Translations under genes and position numbers: made by a program
Shown: in pieces, positions 17,039 through 61,075 of the stretch
Numbering within the stretch: position 1 is the first letter of the stretch
How the letters are laid out: the number at the start of each line of letters is the position of its first letter
NCBI GenBank assembly: GCA_903859155.1
Contig: CAIOLO010000107.1
Coordinates: 3,177-67,176, forward strand
DNA length: 64,000 bases
Direction of reading: 5' to 3'
From: an uncultured beta proteobacterium
GTDB taxonomy: Bacteria > Pseudomonadota > Gammaproteobacteria > Burkholderiales > SG8-39
The notes under the pieces: model-generated
What the model saw: the letters and a program-made list of their open reading frames with translations, nothing else
What the model was told of the DNA's origin: nothing
Database searches by the model: none

Positions 17039-17887
17039 TCAGACCGCGGCAAGGGCTTCAAGTTCGGCGAGCTTGCGATGGCGGAAGGCGCCCCAGATTG
17101 CGGCGCCTATGGCGCCGGCGTAAATCGAGTCGGGGTGGCTCATGGCCTGGATGCCGGTTATTTTTTCGGTGACCAGTTCTTCCTGCAGCGCGGCCAGAAG
17201 GCCGACATCGAGCGCGAGCCCCCCGGTGAGCAGCACGGTGCCCTGGGTGATCCCGGTGACCTTGAGCAGCTTGGCCAGGCGCGATGCCATCGAGAGGTGG
17301 ATTCCCTTCAGGATGTCGGCGGTGGCAATGCCGCGCGAGACCATGTTGATGACGTCGGTCTCGGCCAGCACGGCGCAGATCGAACTCGGCTTTTCGGGAG
17401 TCTGGGAGGTCTTGGACAGCGGGCCGATTTCCTCGATCGCCACGCCCAGGTAGCGCGAAATGTTCTCCAGAAACTGGCCGGATCCCGAGGCGCACTGGCT
17501 GGTCATCTTGGAGGCGAGCACCTTGCCGCGTTCATCGACAAAGATGGCGCGGCCATTGAGCGCGCCGATGTCGACCACCGCCTTGGCCTCGGGGCACAGG
17601 AACACGCCGCCGCGCGCATGCGTGGTCATGGAGTAGAAATGTCCTGTGGCGAATTTGACGTTCTCGCCCTCGCCGGTGGTCGCGGTGTACTGAATATCCT
17701 CCGGTTTGAGCTTCGCTTCCTCCAGAACCTCTTCGTAGCTCGAGCGGGCAAGGTCCATGGCGATCCGCTGGCGGATGCGCTCTACGCGCTTGGCCACCCA
17801 TTCGGTCTTGCCGCCCTCCTGGCGGAACAGTACGGTCTTGACCGCGCCGGAGCCGATGTCGATGCCAATGCTGGTAATTGCGCTCAT
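17039..17887 (-). CDS. bcrD: benzoyl-CoA reductase subunit D (BcrAD/BadFG ATPase family)
   Basis: 282 aa. Has the GIDIGSGAVKTVL actin-like ATPase phosphate-1 motif and CASGSGQFLENI. Its size and position after bcrA fit the delta subunit. Confidence 0.9.
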   Translation of the reverse strand: MSAITSIGIDIGSGAVKTVLFRQEGGKTEWVAKRVERIRQRIAMDLARSSYEEVLEEAKLKPEDIQYTATTGEGENVKFATGHFYSMTTHARGGVFLCPEAKAVVDIGALNGRAIFVDERGKVLASKMTSQCASGSGQFLENISRYLGVAIEEIGPLSKTSQTPEKPSSICAVLAETDVINMVSRGIATADILKGIHLSMASRLAKLLKVTGITQGTVLLTGGLALDVGLLAALQEELVTEKITGIQAMSHPDSIYAGAIGAAIWGAFRHRKLAELEALAAV

Positions 17888-18010
17888 GTCCTCGCCTCCG
17901 ATCGGATGGTTGCTGTTTTAGACACCGAGCTGTCGGCTCGCGAGGCCATTCGCTGCTGTCGCATCCACGCTGCGCGGGGCCCCTGCTTGGCGCTCATGTC
18001 CTCGCCTCCG
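17880..18010 (-). repeat. 21-nt direct repeat pair at the bcrA/bcrD junction enclosing a 37-codon micro-ORF
   Basis: The plus-strand sequence gcgctcatgtcctcgcctccg occurs at 17880-17900 and again at 17990-18010. On the coding strand each copy reads CGGAGGCGAGGACATGAGCGC, i.e. RBS plus ATGA. Confidence 0.85.
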
Positions 18011-19334
18011 CTGTTTTGCCTTCCTCGACCACGGCGCGCCAGGCGAAGGTCGCCCCGCCGAGCGCACCGGTGTAGATCGACTCGGGGTTGATATTGAGGG
18101 TCAGCTCGCCGTAGTTTTCGCGGACGAGATCCTTGAGTGCCTTGACCGCGGCCTCGTTCTTGGCGACGCCGCCGGTGAAGGTGAATTCGTTGCGGATGCC
18201 GCCCGAGCGGGCGAGGATCGACATGGCTCGCAGGATGATGGCGCGGTGCAGTCCGGCCATGATGTCTTCGCGCTTGTCACCCAGCGACAGCCGGTCGCGC
18301 AGTTCGGCGCCGGCAAACACGGTGCAGGTCGAGTTGATGCGCACCGTCTTGGTTGCTTTCATCGCGAGCGGCCCCAGTTCGTGCAGGCCCATGTTCATTT
18401 CATCGGCGATGTAGCCCAGGTAGCGGCCGCAGCCGGCGGCGCAGCGGTCGTTCATCTGAAAGCTCTCGACGATGCCGTGCTTATCAACCTGAATGGCCTT
18501 GGTGTCCTGGCCGCCGATATCGAGAACGGTCGCGGTGCCGGCGTGCATCATATGCGCCCCCAGGCCGTGACACAGAATCTCCGAGCGGATGTGCTCCTTG
18601 GAAAACGGCAGGCGCGCGCGGCCGTAGCCGGTGCCCACGGTGTAGGTCTCCTCCAGCGCCGTGTCCAGAACGCTCTTTATCGGGGCGCGAACCGCGTCGC
18701 CGCGGCTGGCGGTTTCGGGCATCGCCAGGAAAGTGCGATCCAGTGCCGCCAGCAGGTTGGCGCTGATGGCGTCGCCGTACACCCGGTTCTCCACTTCGAT
18801 GATGGAGCGGTCGAATACGTTGACCAGCATGTCGTAGCGCATGCCGGCCTCCTTGGCAACCTGCTCGCCGATGGCAAGGTAGCGGCTGCCGGCGATGTCG
18901 CGAAAGAAGTCGGATTTGCGCTTGGCCCCCGGGGCGAACAGTGCCGGGGCTTCGGCGCGCAGCCGCTTCAATACCTCGGTGAGCGCGGAGGAGACGGCCT
19001 TGCCGGCGTCGCCGAAGCGGCTGCCCTCGGCGTTGCGCTGGCAGGTGGTCTCGAGGTCGGACAGTTGCACCAGGAACTGCTCTAGCCGGAAATCGCGCTC
19101 GAGCTGGGCCAGGAAATCCTCGAGGGCGCCGTTGAGCGCGCCGGAACTGGACAGCGCCTGGCGAAACAGAAAGAAACGCGCGTTGACCAGTGCTTCCTGC
19201 TGGGCGATCTTGGCCGCAGTATCGTAATTCGAGCGCGAATTGGTGATGCCGCGGCCGATGACATTCTGGTTCTCGTCGATAACCACCGCCTTGGTGGTGG
19301 TGGATCCCAGGTCAATCCCTATGAAGCAGCGCAT
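17994..19334 (-). CDS. bcrA: benzoyl-CoA reductase subunit A (BcrAD/BadFG ATPase family)
   Basis: 446 aa. Carries [25 protein letters not shown] and [16 protein letters not shown]. The long insertion between the ATPase motifs is typical of the alpha subunit. Confidence 0.9.
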
Positions 19335-19428
19335 CGAGTCTCCTGTGTCTGTTATTAGACCGGCAACGGGTAAATCTATCGCCGCCTGTTTGAAGCAGCT
19401 TGGCGAGTTTCATGCCAAGCGGTCCTTG

Positions 19429-20763
19429 CTAGTGGCCCGCCGTGACACCGGCCACGGAGCGCTTTTGCTTGATCATCTGGAAGTAGGACTCCAGCCGGTT
19501 CTTGATATTGGCTGCGGAGAAGTAGCGCGGGTCGACCAGGTCGGACTCGATGAATGCAGCGGGTTTGCCGGTGCGCTTTTCGACCTCGCGCAGCATCAGC
19601 AACTGGCCGGCCGAGAAACTGTTGCAGCTTTTGATGGAATTGATCAGCAGGCCGTCCGCCTCATACTCGTCCATGTAGCGGCAGATCATGTCGATGCGCT
19701 GCGGGAAATTCATATTGGTGTAGCAGCCCAGGCAATAGTCTGCGAGCGATTCCAGCGGGTGATCCGGGTCGTGCCGGAAGCCGAAGTCGTACACACCACC
19801 GACCTTGGCATAGGTGCTCGTCACAACGACCGCGCCCTCGTCGTAGAACATCTTCCAGAACTCGCGAAAGCTGGTCCAGTTGGGCGGACCTTCCACCACC
19901 AGGCGGTATTTTTCCTCGGCCATCTCGCCCTCGGGGGTGATCGGACCTTTCTTCTCGCGCACGCGCTGGTCGATCTCCCTGCGCAGCACGTCGTAGTACT
20001 GGGTCGCCTCCGGGGTGCCGCGAAACGCGGTGAAGATCGGCCCGATGTAATACACGGCGCCAAAATAGCCGTCGATGGGCGAGGGCCGGTTCTTGGCCGA
20101 TTGCAGCACACGTACCAGGTCATCCTCGGCCTTGGCCGACTCCTTCATGTACTGGCGCAGCCGGTCGATATCGAACTTCACGCCGGAGACGCGCTCCATG
20201 GTCGGGATCACCGTCTGCTTCAACTGCTTGACGACGTAATCGCGCATGCTTTGCGTGATCTTGCCGTCGCCCTGATAGGGCGTGTGCAGCATGACCGTTT
20301 CGCAATTGTATTTCTGCCGGATCAATTCGAACCACTTCATGAAGGTGAAGCAGCCGGTGTAGGACAAGAGCAGCAGGTCCGGGGTGGGCAATTTCTCGCC
20401 GGTGGGGCCGATCTCGCCGCCCAGCATCATCCCCAGGTCGGCCTTGACATAGGTGCAGACGTCCTCGGAGTGCCCGTCGCGTTCGGCATCCATGATCATC
20501 TTGCCGGATTTCTTGCGCATGCCGTTCTGCAGCGCATTGGTCTCGGGCAGGCTACGGGCAAAATCGAAGCACATCACCAGTTCATTGAGATTGCCGGGAA
20601 CGAAAGTGGCGGCGACTTTCCTGCCGTTCTCGTGAGCGGTGGCGAGCTCGTGATAGTTGCGATTGATCATCTCCTTTTGCAGCAGCATCGCATCCTCTTT
20701 CTGGGCATGCGGCGCGGGCTTCTTGGAGGCTTGCGGCGGCGTCATCTGGACTGGTGTGCTCAT
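19429..20763 (-). CDS. bcrB: benzoyl-CoA reductase subunit B (HgdB/2-hydroxyacyl-CoA dehydratase D-component family)
   Basis: I trimmed the start to the ATG (MSTPVQMTPP), which overlaps the bcrC stop as ATGA. The product is 444 aa and lies between bcrC and bcrA. Confidence 0.85.
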   Translation of the reverse strand: MSTPVQMTPPQASKKPAPHAQKEDAMLLQKEMINRNYHELATAHENGRKVAATFVPGNLNELVMCFDFARSLPETNALQNGMRKKSGKMIMDAERDGHSEDVCTYVKADLGMMLGGEIGPTGEKLPTPDLLLLSYTGCFTFMKWFELIRQKYNCETVMLHTPYQGDGKITQSMRDYVVKQLKQTVIPTMERVSGVKFDIDRLRQYMKESAKAEDDLVRVLQSAKNRPSPIDGYFGAVYYIGPIFTAFRGTPEATQYYDVLRREIDQRVREKKGPITPEGEMAEEKYRLVVEGPPNWTSFREFWKMFYDEGAVVVTSTYAKVGGVYDFGFRHDPDHPLESLADYCLGCYTNMNFPQRIDMICRYMDEYEADGLLINSIKSCNSFSAGQLLMLREVEKRTGKPAAFIESDLVDPRYFSAANIKNRLESYFQMIKQKRSVAGVTAGH

Positions 20764-21929
20764 GCGGCGCTCCATAGCTTGATTGAGTCGGCAAAGGTGC
20801 CGGCCTGTTCCCGGATCGGCGCCATCTGGCCGGTGTTTTCGGCGTACTTGAAGGCGGTGTAGGGAATCTTTTGCTTGGACAGCACGTCCTGCAGCATGGG
20901 CCGCTCGAGCAGCGCCGGGTCGCAGAATGAGGGAGCGGCAAAGATCACGCCTTCGGCGCCGTAGAACTTGACCGAATGCACCAGAAGCTTGCCCTTGTCC
21001 TCTTTTTTCTCGTCGTACTTGGAGGCCTGCTGGTTGGAGCGGTGCAGGAACGCCTTGGACAGCTCCTCCAGCGGGTCGCCGGTGACCGGCACTTCGTCGA
21101 GGAGCCAGCGGTGTATCAGTCCGAAATCATCATCCACGACATAACAGCCGGACATCTCGATCGACTTTATCAAGCCCAGCGGCGGTTGCTCGCAGAACGA
21201 GCCGGTGAGCACGACGCGGGCGTTGTCGCGCTTGGGGCGGTTCTCCAGGTCCACGGCGGCGATGTAATCGCGCACCAGTTGCGTGTGTTCTTGCGGAGGC
21301 AGGATCATTCCCGCGCGAATCACCAGATAGACCTCGGAGGTCGGTGCCTGCCAGGGCTTGCGGGCGCGATAGGCATAGAGCTCCTGCACCGCGCGGCGGT
21401 TATCGTTGTAGACAGCGATTGAAGCGCGCAGCGCATCGTCGCTGATCGGTTTGCCGGCCAGCCGTCCCAGATCCTCGCGCAGCACCTGCATCTCTTGGAT
21501 GTAGAACTCGCCGCCCACCGAATCCAGGTAGTTCTGCGGCACGTCGATGTAGCGCACGTACTTGTCTTTGAACAAAATCTGCCACATGCCCGACAGATTG
21601 CGAATGACGTCGCAAAGCGAGGGGAACAGCATGCCGTCGAGGCAGTCCAGGCGTCCGGTGAGGCCCATCTCCAGGGTCGAGCGCGGGATGCGGCAGATGT
21701 AGCTCTGGTAGTAGGCATCGCCCTGAATGACTTCGAGCTGGTCGCCTCCGCCGAAAATTCCCACCGGCAGCATGCCCGCGGCATGGACGATTTCGCGCGG
21801 CACGTATACCGGCATGTAGCCGATTGCCTTGCGCCCGGGCTCGGCCGCCTTCCACTGCTTGACCGCATTGAAGTGCAGGTCCTCAAAAAGGGCCTGGCAG
21901 CGCTCCATAATCTGCTGAACAGTCGTCAT
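20760..21929 (-). CDS. bcrC: benzoyl-CoA reductase subunit C (HgdA/2-hydroxyacyl-CoA dehydratase D-component family)
   Basis: I trimmed the start to the ATG (MTTVQQIMERCQALFEDLHFNAVKQWK) of ORF 20760..21998, whose first codon is TTG. The product is 389 aa and is the first gene of the bcrCBAD order. Confidence 0.85.
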   Translation of the reverse strand: MTTVQQIMERCQALFEDLHFNAVKQWKAAEPGRKAIGYMPVYVPREIVHAAGMLPVGIFGGGDQLEVIQGDAYYQSYICRIPRSTLEMGLTGRLDCLDGMLFPSLCDVIRNLSGMWQILFKDKYVRYIDVPQNYLDSVGGEFYIQEMQVLREDLGRLAGKPISDDALRASIAVYNDNRRAVQELYAYRARKPWQAPTSEVYLVIRAGMILPPQEHTQLVRDYIAAVDLENRPKRDNARVVLTGSFCEQPPLGLIKSIEMSGCYVVDDDFGLIHRWLLDEVPVTGDPLEELSKAFLHRSNQQASKYDEKKEDKGKLLVHSVKFYGAEGVIFAAPSFCDPALLERPMLQDVLSKQKIPYTAFKYAENTGQMAPIREQAGTFADSIKLWSAA

Positions 21930-22002
21930 GTCCTGGATCCCCCATTTTTGCGCCGGAATACTCCATCTCCCTGAATGGGAGGGGGCAATTTCGTGCAATT
22001 CC

Positions 22003-27309: not shown

Positions 27310-27333
27310 AGAGCGACTGCGCAGGGGTTCGCA

Positions 27334-27729
27334 ATGGAGATTCTGCACCCGGACGATTGGGCGGCCCCGGTCGGCTATGCAAATGGAATTGCCGCCGATG
27401 CCGGCCGCATGGTATTCATCGCCGGGCAGGTGGGATGGGACGCGCAGCAGAAATTTCAATCTGCTGAAATCATTCCGCAGTTCGAACAGGCACTAAAAAA
27501 CGTGCTCGCCGTGCTCGCCGAGGCCGGCGGCAGGCCCGAGCACATCTGTCGTTTAACGGCGTACTGCTGCGACAAGCCGGCGTATCTCGCCGGCCGCCGG
27601 GCACTCGCCCCGATATGGAGGCAGCACATGGGACGTCATTACCCCGCTATGACCTTGGTGTTCGTCGACGACCTGCTCGACAGCCCGGGCAAGATCGAGC
27701 TGGAAGCAACCGCCGTGGTGCCCACATGA
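27334..27729 (+). CDS. RidA/YjgF/endoribonuclease L-PSP family protein
   Basis: 131 aa. GYANGIAADAGRMVFIAGQVGWD ... NVLAVLAEAGG..HICRLTAY fits the RidA fold signature. Confidence 0.8.
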   Translation: MEILHPDDWAAPVGYANGIAADAGRMVFIAGQVGWDAQQKFQSAEIIPQFEQALKNVLAVLAEAGGRPEHICRLTAYCCDKPAYLAGRRALAPIWRQHMGRHYPAMTLVFVDDLLDSPGKIELEATAVVPT

Positions 27730-28502: not shown

Positions 28503-30013
28503 CTAATACTCCAGGAACACTGGCAATAGTCGGAACCGGCGTGATGGGGCGCGGCATCGCGCAGCTTGCCGCACTGGCTGGTGAGCGCGTGCTGTTGCAC
28601 GACGCCAATCCCGGTGCGGCCTCTGCTGCGCTCGCCGGCGTCGCCGCCGACCTGGCGAAGCTGGAGGCCAAGGGAAAGCTTGCCGCCGGCCAGGCCGCGG
28701 CGGCGACGGCAAAGCTCGAAATCGCACCTGATCTGGCGGCGCTTGCAGGTTGCTGGCTGGTGGTCGAGGCGATTGTCGAGAAGCTCGAAGCGAAGCAGGC
28801 CCTGTTCACGAGCCTGGAGGGCGTGGTCGGCGACGATTGCATACTCGCCTCGAACACCTCGACCCTGGAAATCGGCGCGATCGCCGCGGCGTGCCGCCAT
28901 CCGGGGCGCGTTGCCGGATTTCACTTCTTCAATCCGGTGCCGCTGATGAAAGTGGTCGAAGTCGTGGACGGCGCGCTCACCGCTCCGTCAGTGACCGAGG
29001 CGCTTGCGGACCTCGCGCGCCGCATGGGCCACCGTCCGGTGCGTGCCAAGGATTCGCCGGGTTTCATCGTCAACCACGCCGGCCGCGGCTACGGGCCGGA
29101 GGCACTGCGCATCGTCGGCGAGGGCATCGCCTCGTTTCGTGACATCGACGCCATCCTGCGTGAGGGCGCGGGCTTTCGCATGGGGCCCTTCGAGTTGTAC
29201 GACCTGGTGGGTCTGGATATTTCGCACGCGGTCATGGACTCCATGTACCTGCAGTACTACCAGGAACCGCGCTACCGGCCCTCGCCCCTGACCGGCGCGC
29301 GGGTGCGCGCAGGGCTCATCGGACGCAAGACCGGCAACGGCTTCTTTCGTTACGAGGACGGGAAACAGGTTGCGCCGCCGCTGGCGCCCGCTTTGCCTGC
29401 TGTCGACCTGCGACGCCCCGTGTGGGTGAGCGCCCGAGGATTGGGAGGGCGTCTCAGGCCGTTGATCGAAAAGATCGGCGCAGCGCTGGAAACTTCCGCT
29501 AAACCGTCCGCTGATGCGCTTTGTCTGGTCGCGCCGCTAGGCAGCGACGCCACCACCGCTGCCCTGGCCGAAGGCCTCGATGCAGCGCGCACCCTGGCCG
29601 TCGATGCCTTGTTCCCGCTCGAACGTCGTCGCACGCTCATGACCACGCCGGTGACGCGGCCGGAACTGCGCGATGCCGCACAAGCGCTGTTGGCCTCTGA
29701 CGGCGTGCCGGTGACGGTGATCCACGATTCGCCGGGGTTCGTGACGCAACGGGTACTCGCCCACATTGTCAACGTGGCTTCGGATATCGCGCAGCAGCGC
29801 GTCGCCTCGCCCGATGACATCGACGCCGCGGTGAAGTTGGGCCTGGGCTATCCCTTGGGGCCGCTCGCCTGGGGCGATGCGCTCGGACCGGATCGCATTC
29901 TTGCCATTCTCGAGGGACTGCTCGCTTTTTACGGCGAACCGCGCTACCGCCCGAGTCCATGGCTCAAGCGGCGCGCCCTGCTTGGCGTTTCGCTGCTGAC
30001 GCCGGAGGGCTGA
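28499..30013 (+). CDS. 3-hydroxyacyl-CoA dehydrogenase (NAD-binding domain plus duplicated C-terminal domains)
   Basis: I trimmed the start to the GTG that overlaps the SDR stop. Carries the LAIVGTGVMGRGIAQ Rossmann motif, NTSTL, FHFFNPVPLMKVVEV and PGFIVN, then a second PGFVTQR-type C-terminal domain. Confidence 0.85.
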   Translation: MTNTPGTLAIVGTGVMGRGIAQLAALAGERVLLHDANPGAASAALAGVAADLAKLEAKGKLAAGQAAAATAKLEIAPDLAALAGCWLVVEAIVEKLEAKQALFTSLEGVVGDDCILASNTSTLEIGAIAAACRHPGRVAGFHFFNPVPLMKVVEVVDGALTAPSVTEALADLARRMGHRPVRAKDSPGFIVNHAGRGYGPEALRIVGEGIASFRDIDAILREGAGFRMGPFELYDLVGLDISHAVMDSMYLQYYQEPRYRPSPLTGARVRAGLIGRKTGNGFFRYEDGKQVAPPLAPALPAVDLRRPVWVSARGLGGRLRPLIEKIGAALETSAKPSADALCLVAPLGSDATTAALAEGLDAARTLAVDALFPLERRRTLMTTPVTRPELRDAAQALLASDGVPVTVIHDSPGFVTQRVLAHIVNVASDIAQQRVASPDDIDAAVKLGLGYPLGPLAWGDALGPDRILAILEGLLAFYGEPRYRPSPWLKRRALLGVSLLTPEG

Positions 30014-30039: not shown

Positions 30040-31539
30040 TCAGCGCAGCAGCTTGGAGCCGAAAAAAAGCTTGGGCAGCGCACGCACCAGATCCAGCGAT
30101 CCTTCCGCCGCAAAATCCTCCAGCCGCAGGTGTGGATTGCGGGGGCGGATGCGTTCGAAGGCGGCGCGCGCCTGCGGGTCCGCCGGCGGCGGGATGGTCG
30201 CGTCGATCATGAGCTTCGAGCCCATGCGCTGCCAGAGCAGCGTGCCGGGGGCGCCAATTTCGGGAAGGCTGGGATCCATGGCGTGATTGTGGGTGCCCGG
30301 AATGGTCACGACGTCCATTTGCGGGTTGACGCGGGCGTTGATGGCCCACAGCAGTTCCGAGTGGTTGAAAATATCCACGTCGGCGTCGACCGCGATGGCC
30401 ACTTTCGGATGCTGGTATTCCGATGAAAGCGCCGCCATCAGCAGGTTCTTCGCTTCGCCGTAGAAGCGCGGCGTCATCTGGATCACGACGCCGAAGATTC
30501 CGGGGAGCATCATCACATTGTGCAGGTTGGCTCCCCCGCCGACGTCTTTCAAGCGGCGGAAAATGGTCGCGCTCATCGGCACCTTGTGGAACACGCAGCC
30601 TTCCATCTCGGAGCCGTTCTGCAGGTTCTTGAAGATGGCATCGCGCCTGCGCGTCATGCACTGGTACTCGATGATCGGGTTCTTGCCGGTGCCGGTGACG
30701 TAGTAATCCTGGAACTCGGAGAACGGACCTTCATCCTCGCGGATATGCGGCGGGATGTGGCCTTCCAGCACGATTTCGGCGTTGGCGGGCACCTCGAGGT
30801 CGACGGTCTCGCACTTGACCAGAGGCACCGGCGCGCCGAGGAAGCCACCGGCAATTTCGAATTCGTCGTCGCCATACGCGGCGGTCGTCCCGGCCGCGAC
30901 GTAGTACAGCGGATGATGCCCGATCATGATGGCAACCGGCATGGGCTCGTTGCGCTCCTGGTACTTCAGGTAGTTCTTCCAGGAGTGCCTCGGGTAGAGC
31001 AGGATGCCCGATTTGTTCGGACCCTTGATCTGCAGGCGGTGAAAGCTGAAGTTGCGCTTGCCGGTATCCGGATCCTTGGTGACCATGAGCCCGGAACCGA
31101 TCACCGGGCCGCCATCGCGTTGCCCGGCGATATGCACCGGGAGCTGGGTGAGATCGAACTCGCCACGCTTGAACTTCAAATCCTTTACCGGGCCGCTGTC
31201 GACCATCACCGGCGCGATGCGCTGCCCCAGTTTCGCGGCCACGTGCGGTATCAGTTCCTCCTCGGATACGCCGAACGCGACCGCCGCCTGCCGCACATTG
31301 GCCGGGGCCTGGCCGAGTGAGCGCCAGCCATGGGGCAGATTCTCGAAAAACAGCGCCTTGTCGCGGCATTGGTAGAGCAATGCCCCCATCTCGGTGAGCG
31401 GATCGACCGGCTTGTCGACGCGGATCAGCTCTTTGGCGGCGTCGAGTTCGGCGATCCAGCTGCGCAGATCGCGCTCGCTTGCGCGAGGACCGTCCATCGA
31501 CGCCTTGTCTTTCTGCTTGCGCTCCTGTGTGCTCGACAT
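30040..31539 (-). CDS. UbiD-family (prFMN-dependent) aromatic (de)carboxylase paralog 1
   Basis: 499 aa. N-terminus DLRSWIAELDAAKELIRVDKPVDP, with mid-protein EDEGPFSEFQDYY (EGPFxE loop) and a C-terminal region typical of the UbiD fold. Confidence 0.8.
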   Translation of the reverse strand: MSSTQERKQKDKASMDGPRASERDLRSWIAELDAAKELIRVDKPVDPLTEMGALLYQCRDKALFFENLPHGWRSLGQAPANVRQAAVAFGVSEEELIPHVAAKLGQRIAPVMVDSGPVKDLKFKRGEFDLTQLPVHIAGQRDGGPVIGSGLMVTKDPDTGKRNFSFHRLQIKGPNKSGILLYPRHSWKNYLKYQERNEPMPVAIMIGHHPLYYVAAGTTAAYGDDEFEIAGGFLGAPVPLVKCETVDLEVPANAEIVLEGHIPPHIREDEGPFSEFQDYYVTGTGKNPIIEYQCMTRRRDAIFKNLQNGSEMEGCVFHKVPMSATIFRRLKDVGGGANLHNVMMLPGIFGVVIQMTPRFYGEAKNLLMAALSSEYQHPKVAIAVDADVDIFNHSELLWAINARVNPQMDVVTIPGTHNHAMDPSLPEIGAPGTLLWQRMGSKLMIDATIPPPADPQARAAFERIRPRNPHLRLEDFAAEGSLDLVRALPKLFFGSKLLR

Positions 31540-31600: not shown

Positions 31601-33178
31601 CTATGCTTCTCCGGGCTGTTTTCCCGGCTCGAATCCGCCGACTTCGTGGTACAGGACCTTGTTATCGGCTTCATAGGCGCGCACTGTCGGCACTTGTCCG
31701 GGCAGTCCGAGTTCTTGCCAGCGGCTCGCCACCTGGTCGTAGATGGATTTGCGCAGCGTGGTGCGCTTGGAAAATACCGGCAGATGACGGTGTTCCTTGC
31801 ATGCGTTGATCAGCGCCTTGGATCCATAGGGCCGCTTTTCGGGCGGGTTCTGTGTCGGGTCGAGCCAGGTGCTCCAGGTGTTGCGCAGGATATCGATGTC
31901 GTCGGTCGGGTTGCAGCGGCTTGCCATTGCCCAGATGACCTGGTCCATGTCGGTCGGATCGATGTCCTCGTCGACCGCGATGATCCATTTGGTGTAATAC
32001 GCACCTCCCGGCCCCTGCGCGGCCAGGGCGAGTGCCTGGGCCGCATGGCCCGCGTAGCGCTGCTCCAGGCTGATGACCGTCATGCCGAAGCCGCCCGCCG
32101 CAGCTGGATGGGAATACACGCCGGCGATGCCGGGAATGCCCAGCTTGTCCAGGTCGTCCCAGATCTTGGCCGAACGGATCACCGAGAAGAATCCGCTTTG
32201 TTCGCACGAGGGGTAGTCCGCCATCAGTGCGTTGGTGAGTATCGGCCGGGAGCGGTAGTGAACCGCGGTGACATTCACCAGCGGGCAGCCGGCTTCCGGG
32301 CGGCCGTAGTAGCCGGGAAACTCGCCGAAGGGGCCTTCCGACCTGACCGAGTTCGGATGGATCACGCCTTCGATCACCAGTTCCGCATTGGCGGGCAACA
32401 GCAGGTCGGTGGTCTTTCCGCGTACCACGGGAATGGGCTGGCCCTTGATGCCGCCGGCGAATTCGTATTCCGAGACATTCTTCGGGAAGGTCTGCGAACC
32501 GACCATCATGAACAGAGGGTCAATGCCCCAGGCGGCCGCGACCTCGATTGATTTTCCCTGTTGCCAGGCACGCGTGATGTGCAGGCGCGCGTCCTTGCCG
32601 GGCGATAGATAAAGCCCGCTCTCGGCCTTGCCCTGCTGCATCATGCGATAGGTGCCCAGGTTGATGTAGCCCGAGTCCGGGTCGCGCGTGATGACGATGT
32701 CGCCGGTGCCCGCATAGCGACCGCCGTCGAGGGGCCAGTGGCGCGGAATCGGCAGCAGGTCCAGGTCGATCTGCGAACCGAGCAGGCTGTTCTCGAACAC
32801 CGGGGCCTGTGCGGCCTGCACTTCGCGCGGCACGATGCGCTGCTTGAGTTTTTCCTTGCAGCGGCGGATCAGTTCGACTGTCGGCGTATCCGCGGGTTCC
32901 TCGAGCGTGAGGGCTATGCGCTTGATGCTCGGCCCGAGGATGTTCCACAGAGAGCGTGCGCCGATCGGGCTTTTTTCAAAGCCGGCAATATTATCGAACA
33001 GGACTGCGGGCGACGGATTCTGCTTGGCCATCAGATAGGAGATCGCGCTCATTTCCTCGTCGCGGTCGACCGATTTGTTGACCTGCACCAGTTCGCCGAT
33101 TTTTTCGACGCGATCAAGCCATTCGCGCAGATCCTGCACCGGCGCCTTGTTCAGCGCGCTATCCACAATCTTGTTCAT
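31601..33178 (-). CDS. UbiD-family (prFMN-dependent) aromatic (de)carboxylase paralog 2
   Basis: 525 aa. Carries DLREWLDRVEKIGELVQVNKSVD and the SEGPFGEFPGYYG loop. It is co-oriented with paralog 1, 61 nt upstream of it. Confidence 0.8.
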   Translation of the reverse strand: MNKIVDSALNKAPVQDLREWLDRVEKIGELVQVNKSVDRDEEMSAISYLMAKQNPSPAVLFDNIAGFEKSPIGARSLWNILGPSIKRIALTLEEPADTPTVELIRRCKEKLKQRIVPREVQAAQAPVFENSLLGSQIDLDLLPIPRHWPLDGGRYAGTGDIVITRDPDSGYINLGTYRMMQQGKAESGLYLSPGKDARLHITRAWQQGKSIEVAAAWGIDPLFMMVGSQTFPKNVSEYEFAGGIKGQPIPVVRGKTTDLLLPANAELVIEGVIHPNSVRSEGPFGEFPGYYGRPEAGCPLVNVTAVHYRSRPILTNALMADYPSCEQSGFFSVIRSAKIWDDLDKLGIPGIAGVYSHPAAAGGFGMTVISLEQRYAGHAAQALALAAQGPGGAYYTKWIIAVDEDIDPTDMDQVIWAMASRCNPTDDIDILRNTWSTWLDPTQNPPEKRPYGSKALINACKEHRHLPVFSKRTTLRKSIYDQVASRWQELGLPGQVPTVRAYEADNKVLYHEVGGFEPGKQPGEA

Positions 33179-33305: not shown

Positions 33306-35690
33306 TCATTGCATAGCCCCGGCTTCGCGGAATTGTTCGAATTCCTCCCGGCTCAAGCCCAGGAACTCGCTGAATACCCGCTCGTTGCCCCCGCCGAGCA
33401 GCGGGGCGGCTGAAAGCACGTCCCCGGGCGTCGCCGCAAGTTCGAAGGCCGGCATGCAGTATCTCTGCTCGCCGATGACCGGGTGATGTTGGCTGCGCCA
33501 CTGGCGCCTGGTCGCGAGTTGCGGGTCGACGAACAGGTCAGCCATCGAACTGACGGCATGGGCCGGAACCTGCGCGCGCTGCAATATTTCGGCACCCGCT
33601 TGCGCACCGATGCCGATAGTCCAGGCGGCAATTGCGGCGTCGATTGTGTTTTGACTGGATTTTCTGCCGGCGAGCGTTGCAAGGCACGCCTGCGCGGCGA
33701 GTTCCGGGCTGCCGATCGCCGTGCAGAGTCGCGCCAACTGCGCCTCCGACCAACAGGACAGGGCCAGCCAGTTGCCGTCGCTGCATTGATAGACGCCGTG
33801 TGGCGATGCGCCAGGGTCCTCATTATTGTTGCGGCCGGCTACCGTGCCGGACCGGTGGTAGTCGAGGAATGCACCGGCGAGGAACATCAGTCCCGATTCG
33901 TATTGCGAGACATCCAGGTACGCACCTTTGCCGGTTACGCGGCGGCGTTCGAGCGCGGCCAGCACCGCTGCTGCACCCATGGTCGAGGCAATGAAATCCA
34001 CGTAAGGGCCGTAGAGCAGCATGGGGGAACCGCCGGGACTTCCGGTGAGCCCGCACATGCCCACCAGCGCGGTGAGTTGCGAGCCGAAACCAGGGGTGTC
34101 CGCGCGCGGACCGGTCTGGCCCATATTGCAGGTGGAAAGCATGACCAGCGCGGGATTTTCTTTGCTGAGTGATTCATACCCCAGACCCAGCCGGTCGATC
34201 ACCCCGGGGCGCATGTTTTCGATGACGACATCGCTCCACAAGGCCAGACGCCGCGCCAGTTCTCGTCCGGCAGGGGTTTTCAGCTCAATCGTCACGCCAT
34301 ATTTTGAGTCGTTGAAATAGGCAAAGCACGCCCCGTTGTCGATGCCTGGCTTGCCACCCCGGTAGGGCGGATACTGAAGTCGAAAACCATCGGGTCGCGA
34401 GCGCGACTCGACGTGAACCGTGACGGCGCCGAAATTTGCCAGCATTTTTCCGATATGCGGTCCCGCGGCGTAGCTGCCGAATTCGACAATCTTCAATCCG
34501 TCGAGCGCGAATGGCGGTGTGGACGAAGGCGTTCGCTTCGCTGCATCCGATCCGGCATTGTCGCGTGCAACACGCCGCTGCCCGGACCACGGCCCTTTCT
34601 GCGCGCCAATCGAAGGGCGCTTGCCATCGACGATCACGAAGCACCCGCAATGGCGTTCGCTCGCGCCGCCGGGTACCGCGAGGTCCTGCCAGAAGTCACG
34701 CGCGGCCAGTTGTGGATCGGTGGCGTTGTCCGCGACGCTGGACACCGGATAGCCGAGCATCTCGCGCCGGTGTGTTTCTTCGAGGAAATCGCGCTTGGTG
34801 AGCTGGGCGAAAAAAGCCGCAATCGGCGCCTCGATGGCATCGATCTCGGCCTGCGCGCGGATCATGGGGTCCCAATTCCCGCAATCGATGGCGGCAAGCG
34901 CACCGAGCGGCGCGCCTGCGCTGCGCATCCACGCAAGCAACTGCTCCACAGTACGCCGGCCGGCCGGACCGCCGTAAAGGATGAAATTTACGTAACCGTC
35001 CCGGCACGGCCAGAATACGCGGAAGCGCGCGCGCGTCACCGACCGGCCTGTCATGAACGCCCCGGCACGGATGGGCGAGACGCCGTCGATATCGACGAAA
35101 GTGGGCGCGTGCGCGAGCGCCACAATCACCGCAGCCTGCGCCGAGACATCGACGAGTTGGCCGCAGCCGCTGCGCGCGCGCTCAGCCAGTGCCGTGAGCG
35201 CGCCCACCGCGGCCTGCGAACCGGCCCAGGGATACGACTGTGGAACGGAAATGCGCAGTGGCTCACCGTCCGGTTCGCCTGCGAGGGACATCGCGCCTCC
35301 GGCGGCCATGATCTCGAGGTCGGTGGCAAGCCAGTCGGATTTCGGACCCGCAAGGCCGAAGGGTGTAATGGCAACCAGGATAAGACGCGGATTGATTGCG
35401 GCAAGCCGGCCGTAGTCGAAAAGTGATGCTTCCACACTGCCGGGCCTGAAGGTGGCCAGCAGGATGTCGGCGCCCGCGGCGAGGCGGTTGAATTCCTCCA
35501 GGCTCGATGGCGCGTGCACATCCAGCCGCTGCAGGCGCTTGTTGATGTTGAGCGCCCGCCAGTCCGAACCATCCAAGCCGGTCTCGGGTGATTCGAGCTT
35601 CAGGACATCGGCGCCCAGATCCGCAAGCAGGCGGCCGGCCAGCCAGCCCAGCCGGTCAGTGCAATCCAGTACCGCGCAGCCATTGAGCAT
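33306..35690 (-). CDS. tandem-fused family III CoA-transferase (two CaiB/BaiF-type modules in one polypeptide)
   Basis: 794 aa. Module 1 begins VLDCTDRLGWLAGRLLADLGADVLKLESP and module 2 begins IVEFGSYAAGPHIGKMLANFGAVTVHVES. Each ends in a ..G(Q/A)(L/Y)(V/L)DVS segment. A Ser/Pro/Arg-rich linker lies between the modules. Confidence 0.85.
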   Translation of the reverse strand: MLNGCAVLDCTDRLGWLAGRLLADLGADVLKLESPETGLDGSDWRALNINKRLQRLDVHAPSSLEEFNRLAAGADILLATFRPGSVEASLFDYGRLAAINPRLILVAITPFGLAGPKSDWLATDLEIMAAGGAMSLAGEPDGEPLRISVPQSYPWAGSQAAVGALTALAERARSGCGQLVDVSAQAAVIVALAHAPTFVDIDGVSPIRAGAFMTGRSVTRARFRVFWPCRDGYVNFILYGGPAGRRTVEQLLAWMRSAGAPLGALAAIDCGNWDPMIRAQAEIDAIEAPIAAFFAQLTKRDFLEETHRREMLGYPVSSVADNATDPQLAARDFWQDLAVPGGASERHCGCFVIVDGKRPSIGAQKGPWSGQRRVARDNAGSDAAKRTPSSTPPFALDGLKIVEFGSYAAGPHIGKMLANFGAVTVHVESRSRPDGFRLQYPPYRGGKPGIDNGACFAYFNDSKYGVTIELKTPAGRELARRLALWSDVVIENMRPGVIDRLGLGYESLSKENPALVMLSTCNMGQTGPRADTPGFGSQLTALVGMCGLTGSPGGSPMLLYGPYVDFIASTMGAAAVLAALERRRVTGKGAYLDVSQYESGLMFLAGAFLDYHRSGTVAGRNNNEDPGASPHGVYQCSDGNWLALSCWSEAQLARLCTAIGSPELAAQACLATLAGRKSSQNTIDAAIAAWTIGIGAQAGAEILQRAQVPAHAVSSMADLFVDPQLATRRQWRSQHHPVIGEQRYCMPAFELAATPGDVLSAAPLLGGGNERVFSEFLGLSREEFEQFREAGAMQ

Positions 35691-35726: not shown

Positions 35727-37298
35727 CTAACGCCCGGTGCGGGCGAGCGAGATAACCCAGCCTGCCATGCGCGCCTTCATCTTGTCGATGTCCTTGGCGT
35801 TGAAAAACGCCTCGGGCTTGACGCGGTCCACCGGATAGACGGGGCGGTGGAAATCGTTCTCGTAGCCGAAGGGCACCGTCGCATCGATGCCCATGCCGCC
35901 TTCGAACATGGTGTTGGAGGCCGTCCACTGCTTGTCCCCCGAGGTCATGCGCTCGGCCGGCATGAAGGTCTGGCCGCGGCCGCCGGGGATCGGGTTGAGG
36001 ATGTCCGATCGCGGATTCACGCGCGTCGTCAGGCACCACATGATGTCGTCCATGGAGTAGATGTCGACATCCATGCTGACGGCGATTGCCAGGCGCATGC
36101 CCTGCGAACAGGAGAGTATGGCCGAGAGGAAATTGCGCTGCCAGCCTTCTTCGATCTGGTTGCGCTTTTTCACCTGGATGATGCATCCGCCCCAGTCGGT
36201 CATGCAATAGGGGATGTGGACGTTCTGGATGATGCCCGGCTGCAGTCGCTCGCACAGGGCGTAGATGGCCGATTCGCGCACCGAGGTGTCGATGTTGGAA
36301 TCGTCCATGGTGTGCACGCCCAGCGGAAAGATGATCGGCTTGGTCTCTTTCTTGCGCATGGTGATGGCGGTGACGTGGAAGGTCGGCGCCTTGTAGGCCT
36401 TGCCCATGTATCCGGCCCACTCGGGATGGAAGTGGAAGCGGCCCTGCACGTCGGCCTTTTCCGACTCGGCGGTTTCATAGCGCTTGTCGCGCGGGTGCAG
36501 GTAGCCCTCCAGCACGTATTCGGCGTCGGCCAGCGTATAGGCATCGATGGTGCGGCATTTCACCAGCCGTACAGGGGAGTTCTGGATCGCGCCGGCAATG
36601 CCGATCTCGTCACAGCCTTTGGGCAGGATGGCGTAATCGAATCCCGAACCCGCCACGAAGGTGCACGAAGGCGGCACGCCGAAACACATGGTGAGCGGAA
36701 TCGGCTGCTCGTCCTTGTAGTGCTCGGTCATCACCTGCCACATGTGCGAGCCGGGCGAGATCTGGAATGTGCCGACATTGCCCCAGCGGAAATTCATGCG
36801 GTTGTAGCCGATGTGGCTGCCGCCGTCGAAATAGGGCCCGACCACGCAGGAAATTCCGGAGCCGATGGTCAGCTCGGATTCCAGGTGTGTATGGCGGATC
36901 GCGGTGATCCACTTGTTGACGTCCAGGTCATCGGTTATGACCAGTTCCTGTACCGGCGCCTCCTCCTGGGAGATGGTCACCGGTTTGATGGGGCGTTCGA
37001 TCGCGCGCGCGACCTTCTTCACGCGATCCAGCGAATTTTCCCATCCGAACATTTTCTCGATGATACGGATGTCGCCGAACAGGTTGGTGATGGCACGCGC
37101 GTAGGGCTTGCCCTTCACCTTGTTGAACAGCATCGGAAGACTGCCGTCGAAGTGTTTCTGCAGACCGGTGATTTCGAGGTCGGGATCGACTTCCTTGTCG
37201 GTTTCGACCAGCAGGCCTTCGGCCCGGAGCCAGTCCACTGCTTTGGGAAGGCTGCTGACATCGGGTCTTGCTGCAGCAGTTTTGGCGGGTTCGTTCAT
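35727..37298 (-). CDS. divergent UbiD-family (de)carboxylase paralog 3
   Basis: 523 aa. The overall UbiD architecture is present (AVDWLRAEGLLVETDKEVDP, C-terminal TTRVNPRSD). The canonical EGPFGE loop, however, reads QGRFHFHPEWAGYMG. Confidence 0.7.
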   Translation of the reverse strand: MNEPAKTAAARPDVSSLPKAVDWLRAEGLLVETDKEVDPDLEITGLQKHFDGSLPMLFNKVKGKPYARAITNLFGDIRIIEKMFGWENSLDRVKKVARAIERPIKPVTISQEEAPVQELVITDDLDVNKWITAIRHTHLESELTIGSGISCVVGPYFDGGSHIGYNRMNFRWGNVGTFQISPGSHMWQVMTEHYKDEQPIPLTMCFGVPPSCTFVAGSGFDYAILPKGCDEIGIAGAIQNSPVRLVKCRTIDAYTLADAEYVLEGYLHPRDKRYETAESEKADVQGRFHFHPEWAGYMGKAYKAPTFHVTAITMRKKETKPIIFPLGVHTMDDSNIDTSVRESAIYALCERLQPGIIQNVHIPYCMTDWGGCIIQVKKRNQIEEGWQRNFLSAILSCSQGMRLAIAVSMDVDIYSMDDIMWCLTTRVNPRSDILNPIPGGRGQTFMPAERMTSGDKQWTASNTMFEGGMGIDATVPFGYENDFHRPVYPVDRVKPEAFFNAKDIDKMKARMAGWVISLARTGR

Positions 37299-37338: not shown

Positions 37339-38157
37339 TCATGGCTGATGCATGTTTCTTACGGCTTTTTCAGACAAGGCAATTTCCTCGCGCAGGACCG
37401 AGACGATCTCGCTCCTGCGGGTTTCGGTCATCCGGCTGATGATGGCCCCGACGGTGATCGAGGCGAAGGGGTGTCCGTAGCGGTTGATGATGGGCAGGCC
37501 CAGCGTGGCCGCACCGTCGGCAAGGTGGGCGTCGTTCCAGGCGTAGCGCAGGGCGCGCGAATGCTCCAGCGCTTCGAGCAGTGCCGGCACAGTGAGGTTG
37601 TAGTAGCCGACCAGGCGGGTCGCATTGGCACGCACGATTTCCTGGATCGCCTCGTCGGGCAGGGGCATCAACATGGCGATTCCGCTCGCACCCGCACCCA
37701 GCGGGCGGCGCTCGCCCACGTCCAGCGTGAAGGTCTTGATCGGGAACGAGCCTTCCTTGCGGTCGATGCAGACCGAATCGTGGCCGCTGCGCACCGACAG
37801 GAATACCGTGTCGCCGGTCTTCTCGGCCAGGCGCTGCAACGAGGGGCGGCAGATATCGCAAAGGTTGAATTGCGGTGCGGCGGCCAGGCCCAGCTCGAAC
37901 ACCAGCGGCCCGAGGCAGTACAGGCGCGAATCCGCGTCCTGGGTGAGCAGGCCCTCGGCGATCAGTCCTTTGAGGATGCGGTGCGCCGTGGGCCGTTGCA
38001 GGCCGGAGAATTTCACCACGTCGGTGAGTCGCATGCCGGGGCGATTGCGCGAGGCCACCAGGCGCACGATCGCTGCGGCGCGATGCAGAGTCTGCGTGCC
38101 GCCCGGGTGACTCCGGCTTGGTTTGGCCGGTTTTACTCTGCTGCTGGTGGCGTTCAT
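37339..38157 (-). CDS. IclR family transcriptional regulator
   Basis: 272 aa. The HTH is LHRAAAIVRLVAS..MRLTDVVKFSGLQRPTAHRILKGLIAEGLL, followed by an IclR effector domain. It is divergent from UbiD paralog 4. Confidence 0.85.
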   Translation of the reverse strand: MNATSSRVKPAKPSRSHPGGTQTLHRAAAIVRLVASRNRPGMRLTDVVKFSGLQRPTAHRILKGLIAEGLLTQDADSRLYCLGPLVFELGLAAAPQFNLCDICRPSLQRLAEKTGDTVFLSVRSGHDSVCIDRKEGSFPIKTFTLDVGERRPLGAGASGIAMLMPLPDEAIQEIVRANATRLVGYYNLTVPALLEALEHSRALRYAWNDAHLADGAATLGLPIINRYGHPFASITVGAIISRMTETRRSEIVSVLREEIALSEKAVRNMHQP

Positions 38158-38407: not shown

Positions 38408-39940
38408 ATGAGCGCGATCGTACGGCTCCCCGACGGTATGGGCAGTCCCATGGGTAACGTGGCCGGCGCAGCAGTACCGGCAAGCAAGGACGTCAGCTAT
38501 AACATCCCCTACGAAGACCTGCGCGGCTGGATCGCGCAAGCCGAAAAACTCGGCGAAGTCCGCCATGTCAAGGGAGCCACCTGGCAGGAGGAAATGGGCA
38601 TGGCTGCCGAGCTGGTGCAGCACGACGAAAAGGCGCCCTGCGTACTTTTCGAAGACGTGCCCGGATGCCGCAAAGGTGATCGCCTGCTGACCAATTTCTT
38701 CGGCGGCCGGCGGCAGAACATGACACTCGGGTTTCCCCTGGATTTCACCAAGCTCCAGCTCTCGGAGGCCTTCCTCGAATGCTACATGCGTGATCTGAAG
38801 CCCATCCCCCATCAGTACGTCGAAACGGGGCCGGTGATGGAGAACGTGATCACCGGCGACGCCATCGACATCACCAAATTTCCCGTGCCCAAGTGGCACG
38901 AGGGTGATGGCGGACGCTACGTCGGAACCGGCAGCTACAACATCACCATCGATCCCGAGGAAAACTGGATCAACGTGGGCACCTACCGGGTAATGATCCA
39001 TGACAAGAACACGGTCGGGTTCTACATGTCCCCGGGCAAGCACGGGCGCATCCACCGCGACAAGTACGAGGCGCGCAACGAACCGATGCCCGTGGTGGTC
39101 GTGATCGGCGGCGATCCGCTGCAGTTCCTGGTTGCGTGCAGCGAGATGCCCTACGGTGTTTGTGAACTGGACATCGCCGGCGGTCTGCGCGGCAAGGCGG
39201 TTAAAGTTGTGAAAGGCCCGGTCACCGGCCTGCCGATTCCCGCAAATGCGGAGATGGTGCTGGAGGGATTCGTGCAACCCCACAAGCGCAAGCTGGAGGG
39301 GCCTTTTGGCGAATGGACCGGTTACTACGCCAGCGACGTGCGCGAGGAGCCGGTGCTGGACATCAAGGCGATCTACCACCGCAACGACCCGATCATCCTC
39401 GGCTGCCCGCCGCAACGGCCGCCCGAGGAACAGGCGCGCTACCGCGCCGTCACCCGCTCCGCGCTGATCCGCAAGAACGTGCTGCAGGCAGGCGTACCCG
39501 ATATCACCGCGGTATGGGCCCATGAAGTGGGCGGTTCACGCCTGCTGCTGGGGGTCTCCATCAAGCAGCGTTATGCCGGCCACTCCAAACAGGCCGGACA
39601 TGTTGCCGCGATGTGCCACGCGGGCGCCTACGCGGGCAAGTACGTGATCGTGGTCGACGATGACATCGATGTGAGCAATCTGGAGGATCTCATGTGGGCG
39701 ATGTGCACCCGTTCCGATCCCGCGACCTCCATTGACATCATCCACGGCACCTGGAGCACCCCGCTCGATCCGCGCATCCCGCCCGAGGAGAAGGCAAAGG
39801 GCAACAACACCAATTCGCGCGCCATCATCGACGCCTGCCGTCCGTACCACTGGCGCGACAAATTTCCCAAGGTCAACATGCCCAGTCCCGAGCTGGCGCG
39901 CCGCACCATGGAGAAATTCGGTTATCTGCTGAAGCCGTAA
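38408..39940 (+). CDS. UbiD-family (prFMN-dependent) aromatic (de)carboxylase paralog 4
   Basis: 510 aa. Carries DLRGWIAQAEKLGEVRHVKG and the LEGPFGEWTGYYA loop, with a good RBS. Confidence 0.8.
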   Translation: MSAIVRLPDGMGSPMGNVAGAAVPASKDVSYNIPYEDLRGWIAQAEKLGEVRHVKGATWQEEMGMAAELVQHDEKAPCVLFEDVPGCRKGDRLLTNFFGGRRQNMTLGFPLDFTKLQLSEAFLECYMRDLKPIPHQYVETGPVMENVITGDAIDITKFPVPKWHEGDGGRYVGTGSYNITIDPEENWINVGTYRVMIHDKNTVGFYMSPGKHGRIHRDKYEARNEPMPVVVVIGGDPLQFLVACSEMPYGVCELDIAGGLRGKAVKVVKGPVTGLPIPANAEMVLEGFVQPHKRKLEGPFGEWTGYYASDVREEPVLDIKAIYHRNDPIILGCPPQRPPEEQARYRAVTRSALIRKNVLQAGVPDITAVWAHEVGGSRLLLGVSIKQRYAGHSKQAGHVAAMCHAGAYAGKYVIVVDDDIDVSNLEDLMWAMCTRSDPATSIDIIHGTWSTPLDPRIPPEEKAKGNNTNSRAIIDACRPYHWRDKFPKVNMPSPELARRTMEKFGYLLKP

Positions 39941-40149: not shown

Positions 40150-40923
40150 TCAGGTTTGCCAGGACTTGTACTTCGCGGCCAGTTTTTCGGTTTCGCGTGC
40201 GAGGATGGTCACATCCGATCCCACCGTGATGAACTGCGCCCCCAGGTCGACATAATGGCGGGCGCGCGCTTCGTCGTTGGTCAATATGCCCGGCGCCTTG
40301 CCGCATCGGCGGATGGTGACGATGCCCTCGTCGAGCACCTTCTGCACCTCCGGGTGGTTCATGTTGCCCATGTGCCCCATGTCGGTTGACAGGTCCCCGG
40401 GGCCGAGGAACACGCCATCCACGCCCTCGACACGGGTGATTTTCTCGAGGTTCTGTATGCCCAGACGCGTCTCCACCTGCACCAGCACGCAGATTTCGCC
40501 GGCGGCCTTTTTGGCGTAGTCCTTGATGCGCATGAAACGCGAGGCGCGGGTCGGGCCGCCGGATCCGCGCACGCCCTCAGGCGCATAGCGCGTGTAAGCC
40601 ACCGCATTCCTTGCCTCCTCTTCGGTCTGGATCATGGGGATCAGGAGCGTCTGCGCGCCCGCGTCGAGCACGCGCTTGATCGTCACCATGTCGTTCCAGG
40701 GAACGCGCACCACCGGCTGGGTATGGTTTTCCATGGTTGCGTGCAGCAGCCGCACCATCATGAACATGTCGATCGGCGCGTGTTCGGTATCGATGATCAG
40801 CCAGTCGAGGCCCGCTCCGGCCACCACCTCCATGGCGTATTCGCTGCACAGATTGCACCACACGCCCGCCTGCAGCTGGCCGGATTTCAGGGCGTGCTTG
40901 AAATGATTGACGGGCAGTTCCAT
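40150..40923 (-). CDS. HpcH/HpaI family 2-keto-3-deoxy-acid aldolase
   Basis: 257 aa. Carries LDWLIIDTEHAPID, VRVPWND and QTLLIPMIQTEEEA, the class II HpcH/HpaI aldolase pattern. Confidence 0.85.
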   Translation of the reverse strand: MELPVNHFKHALKSGQLQAGVWCNLCSEYAMEVVAGAGLDWLIIDTEHAPIDMFMMVRLLHATMENHTQPVVRVPWNDMVTIKRVLDAGAQTLLIPMIQTEEEARNAVAYTRYAPEGVRGSGGPTRASRFMRIKDYAKKAAGEICVLVQVETRLGIQNLEKITRVEGVDGVFLGPGDLSTDMGHMGNMNHPEVQKVLDEGIVTIRRCGKAPGILTNDEARARHYVDLGAQFITVGSDVTILARETEKLAAKYKSWQT

Positions 40924-44760: not shown

Positions 44761-44862
44761 CATGCGGCATACTGCGTTTGCCGGGTGCCAGTGTCGGGAG
44801 CAGAAACTGAATTTGTTGCAGTCGCGCCCCTGCTAGCAAGTCGATTGACGAAAGGAATATTC

Positions 44863-45825: not shown

Positions 45826-45867
45826 CGGACAGGCGAATTGCCAGGCCGGGCATGTGAAGGAGTGGTG

Positions 45868-61073: not shown

Positions 61074-61075
61074 GC

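Follow-up and report, generated by a model that had tools for sequence, protein, structure and literature searches.

Family III coenzyme A (CoA) transferases such as Frc, YfdW and CaiB are interlocked dimers. The denitrifiers studied activate phthalate by means of a two-subunit, succinyl-CoA-dependent type III CoA-transferase, after which phthaloyl-CoA decarboxylase (PCD) acts (PMC13040137; bioRxiv 10.1101/2022.07.29.502009; PMC11659651); the activating enzyme has been named SptAB (PMC11659651). The succinyl-CoA:phthalate transferases of Azoarcus sp. PA01 and of Aromatoleum aromaticum EbN1 were reported to be specific for o-phthalate, and phthaloyl-CoA to be extremely unstable (PMC13040137). 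Single-chain members of the family are also known: DddD has two CaiB domains (PMC7174347) and was the sole two-domain member characterised before PtmU4, which relies on the conserved Asp of its C-terminal domain (PMC6006322). The linker of type III CoA-transferases that have two domains is poorly conserved, and 2401 bacterial two-domain homologues were known as of 2017 (Dong et al. 2018, PMC6006322). Here we describe a fused, two-module family III CoA-transferase encoded by an open reading frame (ORF) of 794 amino acids plus stop codon, with an ATG start, at 33306..35690 (minus strand) of a 64,000-nucleotide stretch of contig CAIOLO010000107.1 (assembly GCA_903859155.1) from an uncultured beta proteobacterium. 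This whole stretch is referred to as the window, and it supplies the position numbers unless another locus is named.

We consider the 794-amino-acid protein most likely to be a single-chain succinyl-CoA:phthalate CoA-transferase, presumably the one-polypeptide counterpart of SptAB, because of its PCD neighbour, its collinearity with the EbN1 genes and the nearby benzoyl-CoA reductase genes. In this probable arrangement, which we hold with good though incomplete confidence, a flexible linker of ~37 residues would join two paralogous subunits, the N-type one first and the C-type one second, and the product would feed PCD and the benzoyl-CoA pathway. Like the EbN1/PA01 phthalate transferase, it shows ~61% identity per half, the same order of parts, a position directly downstream of pcd, the same asymmetry of the two parts and the context of an anaerobic benzoyl-CoA pathway. 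It differs in that the subunits of ~43 and ~41 kDa are replaced here by one polypeptide, in which the tail of the N-type subunit has given way to a low-complexity linker.

The gene directly upstream, across a gap of 36 bp, is a UbiD-family orthologue of PCD (35727..37298, minus strand). Its product matched Protein Data Bank (PDB) entry 8pmk, titled 'Phthaloyl-CoA decarboxylase', over its full length with 1085 bits; 8oz5 was also matched. A UbiD gene carried by EbN1 plasmid 2 is 88.5% identical to it; the order there is ubiX, UbiD (pcd), a CoA transferase of 395 amino acids, a CoA transferase of 406 amino acids, IS5 and a tripartite ATP-independent periplasmic (TRAP) transporter. The two EbN1 transferase genes, WP_011255034 and WP_011255035, overlap by 4 bp. 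Residues 1-366 of the fused protein are ~61-62% identical to the first, which has Tyr in the column of the catalytic Asp (VPQSYCWAG), and the second (YGPYIDFIAS) is matched by residues 395-794 at 61% identity, the two matches being collinear.

The linkage to PCD was conserved. Among the fetched loci, all 15 (the window included) that held a homologue of at least 41% identity and had usable upstream sequence carried, immediately upstream, an orthologue of PCD or, at a contig end, a UbiD-like fragment. No UbiD gene was found within 10 kb in ~64 loci at 38% transferase identity or less. Identity to the PCD of the window ranged from 48 to 86% in the 11 fetched genome loci measured. A mosaic origin or recent gene transfer, as might be read from the 88% identity of PCD to EbN1 set against 61% for the transferase, was considered and rejected: PCD was the more conserved partner in every locus (for example, 86% against 57-59%, and 69% against 48%), so the contrast is no sign of mosaicism.

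Two stretches of the ORF matched Pfam PF02515 (CoA_transf_3). Scanned alone, residues 1-365 covered profile positions 1-336 of 366 with 176.8 bits, and for residues 391-794 the score was 326.2 bits over positions 1-364 of 366, both above the curated cut-off of 23.3 bits; aligned to each other, the two halves were 27% identical over 350 amino acids (E 6e-23). The N-terminal module, predicted to be non-catalytic, spans residues 1-357 (34620..35690, minus strand) and resembles the first EbN1 subunit and chain A (BbsE) of the benzylsuccinate CoA-transferase BbsEF. The C-terminal module, predicted to be catalytic, spans residues 395-794 (33309..34508, minus strand) and resembles the second EbN1 subunit and chain B (BbsF). 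Between them, residues 358-394 (34509..34619, minus strand; RPSIGAQKGPWSGQRRVARDNAGSDAAKRTPSSTPPF) form a linker that stands in the place of the last ~30 PF02515 profile positions, which the N module lacks. This linker has a low predicted local distance difference test (pLDDT) score and is poorly conserved, being ~37 amino acids long here and 27-101 across homologues, with a mean identity to the query of 0.09. The frame of 794 codons is single, and the linker contains neither a stop nor a start codon. A first-pass annotation, made from the letters of the window, had described two full CaiB/BaiF-type modules of 380-400 amino acids joined by a linker. The two modules were recovered as PF02515 matches and the linker string it quoted lies at residues 358-394, whereas the size fits only the C module, the N module being ~357 residues long.

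The same annotation had suspected that the N half lacks the catalytic Asp and that the segment YGPYVDFIAS of the C half carries it. In HMMER alignments against solved family III enzymes, Asp565 (codon GAT, 33996..33998, minus strand) fell on the catalytic Asp column of 4ed9 ('afaDift'), 10uh ('amtDiva') and chain B of 9fn0 ('nytDhv'), marking it as the predicted nucleophile. Tyr153 (codon TAT, 35232..35234, minus strand), inside the conserved motif VPQSYPWAG at residues 149-157, fell on the same column with no gap there in the alignments to the three enzymes. We take this column to be that of Asp169 in Frc and CaiB. The homologue set comprised 108 full-length proteins of 740-854 amino acids and 35-82% identity. 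Asp565 was invariant (108/108), while the N-half column held Tyr in 40, Pro in 23, Gly in 10, Phe in 10, His in 9 and Trp in 6, with one Asp and one Glu. The alignment thus places the Asp in the C half alone, and together with the 108-homologue column it confirms, at the level of sequence comparison, that degeneracy of the N half at this position is a property of the family.

The possibility that both halves are catalytic, the N half through a differently placed acidic residue, draws on other conserved acids of that half, such as D124 in an SDLE motif. D124, however, is the counterpart of a motif in canonical enzymes, GYD, that is not nucleophilic, and the column occupied by Y153 aligns without gaps to three solved enzymes and varies across homologues among Y, P, G, F, H and W. 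In BbsEF the equivalent subunit also has Tyr, and the adduct in 9fol lies on D178 of chain B only. We therefore regard a second active half as very improbable.

A model of the whole chain was built with AlphaFold2 from a 92-sequence alignment. It had a mean pLDDT of 94.5 and a predicted template modelling score (pTM) of 0.95, with low confidence only at residues ~371-390; because a pTM of 0.95 was reached for a 794-residue chain, the arrangement of the two halves appears confidently fixed in the model. A Foldseek search of the PDB gave BbsEF as the best match, with template modelling (TM) scores of 0.92-0.95 and root mean square deviations of 1.6-1.7 for chains B and D, and TM scores of 0.85-0.87 for chains A and C. 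At the sequence level, chain B was the nearest match of the C half (E 6e-54), and chain A that of the N half (E 1e-33). The title of PDB entry 9fol is 'D178-CoA adduct'. Counted along the alignment, D178 in chain B of 9fn0 and 9fol aligns with Asp565; in chain A, residue 178 is Ala, and the aligned residue is a Tyr at position 171. Given this Tyr/Asp asymmetry in BbsEF, a pair of one catalytic and one non-catalytic partner is already visible in a solved split relative. BbsEF thus resembles the fused protein as the best sequence and fold match for both halves and in its asymmetry, and differs in having separate subunits, ~27-31% identity, another substrate and another gene context: no bbs genes were found here, the neighbours being pcd and other UbiD genes. 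No solved two-domain member was found in the PDB searches, in which sequence matches at E<=1e-10 were 359-456 amino acids long and the top 50 fold matches covered at most 445 columns. A literature search found no paper on the BbsEF structure. Among homodimeric family III enzymes (Frc, YfdW, CaiB, SUGCT) and alpha-methylacyl-CoA racemase, the module fold is shared (Foldseek TM 0.80-0.93), as is the Asp-based chemistry of the C half; those enzymes have two equivalent active sites, unlike the fused protein with its one Asp per pseudo-dimer.

The N half does not appear to be decaying, since it is conserved as much as the C half: mean identity across homologues was 0.52 for the N half and 0.53 for the C half. 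Around the lost Asp column, the motif PQ(S/A)xxW/H(A/T)G is nearly invariant in fused and split forms alike. The proposal of a single-chain pseudo-heterodimer with one active and one scaffolding half is therefore supported in its first part by the invariant Asp565, the matches to the BbsEF chains and the AlphaFold2 model, while 'scaffolding' understates an N half that is conserved like its partner and has a motif of its own. One may ask whether this half has a separate function, as an additional site that binds CoA or an acid non-covalently, or as a docking surface that passes labile phthaloyl-CoA to PCD. The equal conservation, the motif kept in fused and split forms and the extreme instability of phthaloyl-CoA (PMC13040137) would all fit such a role. 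Equal conservation is also expected, however, if the N half is an obligate partner making up one half of the fold and contributing to the single active site, and we consider a separate function improbable.

A fusion of this kind could in principle arise from an assembly or sequencing error masking a stop or frameshift between two genes. Relatives including EbN1 do carry two genes, overlapping by 4 bp or lying 9-15 nucleotides apart, so that a one-base error could join them. Against this, the identical 794-amino-acid protein was called on contigs of at least four separate metagenome assemblies, homologues at 82% and 80% identity are likewise 794 amino acids long, and dozens more fused homologues of ~800 amino acids occur at 52-64% identity in different sources. 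The open frame is continuous in three further fused loci as well (L003, L004 and L084; homologous loci are denoted by L numbers, L085 being that of EbN1). An artefact therefore has next to no likelihood, and a hidden stop or frameshift between the modules is excluded. Homologues of ~800 amino acids number in the hundreds. An exhaustive search returned 5695 cluster representatives at 50% identity with E<=1e-30; among the best 150, more than 140 were ~630-860 amino acids long, far beyond the length of one module, and at least 562 places were recorded when GTDB species genomes were scanned. The fusion suggested by the first-pass annotation is thus genuine.

A survey of fused and split homologues, scored by a frame-and-stop test on tblastn segments, found both forms within the PCD-linked clade. 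Fused forms were present in the window, L003, L004 and L084 and in many database proteins of ~800 amino acids. Split forms were present in L005-L011, L034, L041, L051, L061, L065, L079 and EbN1. A database protein of 443 amino acids (P0092) had been a candidate split homologue and was rejected as a gene-calling artefact, the ORF in L084 being 795 amino acids long and fused. In proteobacterial split forms the N-type gene stops within 9-15 nucleotides of the beginning of the C half (including L005 and L007-L009), and overlaps of the ATGA type were seen at the junctions read in L010 (~11080), L011 (~1862) and EbN1 (L085 9185-9188). With such overlaps and gaps, a one-base change could interconvert the split and fused forms. 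Split forms of Deltaproteobacteria, Chloroflexi and Binatia have an N-type subunit with the full canonical C-terminal tail (..GEHN..Y..LGL....GVI*). In this second group, true intergenic spacers of ~40-150 nucleotides were found in L034, L041, L061 and L079, and the gap was only about a dozen nucleotides in L006 and L051. The Deltaproteobacteria metagenome-assembled genome (MAG) CP070673.1 carries, downstream of a PCD-like gene, an extra open frame of ~322 codons between the N-type and C-type genes (L065 11250-12218).

A rough neighbour-joining tree with BbsEF as its root scattered the split forms over at least four separate positions among the fused ones, with EbN1 nested among fused relatives. 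The tree, which is only indicative, suggests repeated fusion or fission, and some of the splits in MAGs could be frameshift errors. Stop-codon readthrough or recoding was also considered, as in 10 of 11 distant split pairs a single stop lay between two genes that share one frame. It was rejected because the stops are a mixture of TGA, TAA and TAG, the N-type tail is canonical and a normal Met start comes next; the same-frame bias most likely reflects selection by tblastn, which joins same-frame pieces.

The proposed catalytic pathway follows established family III chemistry. Asp565 would attack succinyl-CoA to form an aspartyl-succinyl mixed anhydride, which the released CoA thiolate would convert to an Asp565-CoA thioester as succinate leaves. 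Phthalate would then form an Asp-phthaloyl anhydride, and renewed attack by the CoA thiolate would release phthaloyl-CoA. The N half, with Tyr153 in place of Asp, would be unable to do this chemistry and would serve as the partner completing a dimer-like fold, probably contributing one wall of the single active site. The PCD encoded 36 bp upstream would then decarboxylate the labile phthaloyl-CoA, giving benzoyl-CoA, which the class I benzoyl-CoA reductase encoded ~12 kb away would dearomatise. Fusion would ensure a 1:1 stoichiometry and the correct pairing of the paralogous halves. The substrates, the reaction steps and co-transcription of the genes are what we infer.

Several points weigh against assigning the protein to phthalate activation in this form. 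The PCD next to it needs UbiX for its prenylated flavin mononucleotide (prFMN) cofactor, and a tblastn search with EbN1 UbiX (E<=1e-5) found no UbiX gene in the 64-kb window; every described anaerobic phthalate cluster is said to carry ubiX. That the EbN1 gene pair is the characterised SptAB is our assumption, based on its position in the cluster and on the work of Ebenau-Jehle et al. 2017. The intramolecular, interlocked pairing of the two halves is something we infer from the pTM of the model and from fold matches to single chains. The specificity of the transferase could differ, since its identity to the EbN1 genes is only 61%. It might also serve further substrates, because two more UbiD paralogues follow in the same orientation: paralogue B (31601..33178, minus strand) lies 127 bp downstream of the transferase, and paralogue A (30040..31539, minus strand) 61 bp beyond it.

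These last two points bear on an alternative in which the architecture is the same and the physiological acceptor is a compound other than o-phthalate, or includes one. Another aromatic or dicarboxylic acid, such as isophthalate, terephthalate or a substituted phthalate, could be activated, and the CoA esters decarboxylated by the two downstream paralogues. Paralogues A and B lie on the strand of the transferase, with no minus-strand terminator-like site between the genes, and their closest solved relatives are uncharacterised or distant, the best PDB matches being 7pda and 6h6v. The transferase, just 61% identical to EbN1, leaves room for another acceptor. Its pairing with PCD in all 15 informative loci nevertheless argues for phthalate. 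Relatives of A and B stood beside the transferase in no other locus (37% identity at most), and the PA01 and EbN1 enzymes are those reported above as specific for o-phthalate (PMC13040137). We judge a different or additional acceptor unlikely, yet the likeliest of the alternatives considered. A more speculative version, which we give a low probability, treats the string pcd, fused transferase, UbiD B and UbiD A as a multi-substrate module. Several benzene-dicarboxylates (o-, iso- or terephthalate, or phthalates with substituents) would be activated by one transferase, and three prFMN-dependent decarboxylases would convert the products to benzoyl-CoA. If true, such a module would offer a candidate for two routes, the anaerobic one from terephthalate, which is still hypothetical, and one from isophthalate that depends on a CoA-transferase.

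With single-chain activation of o-phthalate retained as the preferred assignment, the surroundings of the gene can be described as follows. A regulator of the IclR family, its role being a prediction (37339..38157, minus strand), lies 40 bp upstream of pcd, and a further UbiD-family gene, paralogue D (38408..39940, plus strand), is divergently oriented. Four UbiD-family paralogues thus lie within 10 kb, only one of which is the PCD orthologue. A second UbiD gene in the vicinity of the EbN1 phthalate cluster (L085 1151-2665) has 72% identity to paralogue D, and relatives of D at 68-70% identity were found beside the pcd-transferase pair in L005 (12450-13955) and L011 (3656-5179); a second, uncharacterised UbiD decarboxylase of this type seems to travel with the pcd-transferase module. 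A promoter and terminator scan returned sites no more numerous than expected by chance.

Four genes at 17039..21998 (minus strand) encode class I benzoyl-CoA reductase subunit types, assigned by domain type as two BcrAD/BadFG ATPases and two HGD-D proteins, and their products would consume the predicted benzoyl-CoA. They belong to a full anaerobic benzoyl-CoA pathway block at 17039-30013 that also contains genes for two enoyl-CoA hydratases, a 2-oxoacid:ferredoxin oxidoreductase (24045-26704), a rubrerythrin-like protein, RidA, a short-chain dehydrogenase/reductase and a 3-hydroxyacyl-CoA dehydrogenase. Adjoining the aromatic-degradation genes, genes for the large and FAD-binding subunits of a molybdenum hydroxylase of the xanthine dehydrogenase/4-hydroxybenzoyl-CoA reductase type were found at 8717-12108 (plus strand). 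An ORF of 1034 amino acids at 12186-15290 (plus strand) has an N-terminal, old-yellow-enzyme-like Oxidored_FMN part (residues 2-222, matching part of the profile) and, at its C-terminal end, an acyl-CoA ligase part of the AMP-binding type (519-1013).

The cluster is flanked by genes for TctC-family binding proteins at 42009-42986 (minus strand), 44785-45825 (plus strand) and 45838-46839 (plus strand), beside which lie an FAA-hydrolase gene (41011-41877) and an HpcH aldolase gene (40150-40923). EbN1 and L084 have a TRAP transporter where the window has the TctC-type genes, and these proteins could be the phthalate uptake system here. The EbN1 cluster, with its ubiX and TRAP transporter, thus differs from the window, which has TctC-type binding proteins and two extra downstream UbiD paralogues. 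Farther along, a gene at 47435-53509 (plus strand) encodes a protein of 2024 amino acids with RTX calcium-binding repeats and multiple bacterial cadherin-like and immunoglobulin-like domains. Four consecutive paralogous genes at 58144-62407 (minus strand) have weak NodZ/alpha-1,6-fucosyltransferase-like matches; their neighbours encode a glycosyltransferase, an epimerase, a DegT aminotransferase and radical SAM proteins, making up a cluster of the surface-polysaccharide type.

Set against the DddD/PtmU4 class, the fused transferase shares tandem CoA_transf_3 modules in one chain, a poorly conserved linker and a catalytic Asp in the C-terminal domain only; we liken the two by architecture, as described for that class. 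The reactions and gene contexts differ, and the 794-amino-acid protein belongs to a PCD-linked clade that includes split forms. Because the DddD/PtmU4 class has already been described (PMC6006322, PMC7174347), the two-domain architecture and its asymmetry are not new. The literature searched contained no description of a fused phthalate CoA-transferase; a widespread single-chain phthalate transferase, and the alternation of fused and split forms within one PCD-linked clade, appear to be undescribed there.

The 794-amino-acid protein is thus a member of an already described two-domain class and does not overturn current understanding; it will not surprise the specialist, and it is useful for annotation and for the study of evolution. 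For annotation, 'CaiB-like' proteins of ~800 amino acids encoded directly downstream of a PCD-type UbiD gene become readable as single-chain phthalate-activating CoA-transferases. Such genes would mark a potential for anaerobic degradation of phthalate, a plasticiser component, in uncultured Proteobacteria; the two-subunit form is the only one characterised. For evolution, the PCD-linked orthologous group, with its fused and split asymmetric pairs, offers a natural test bed for the single-chain folding of such dimers.

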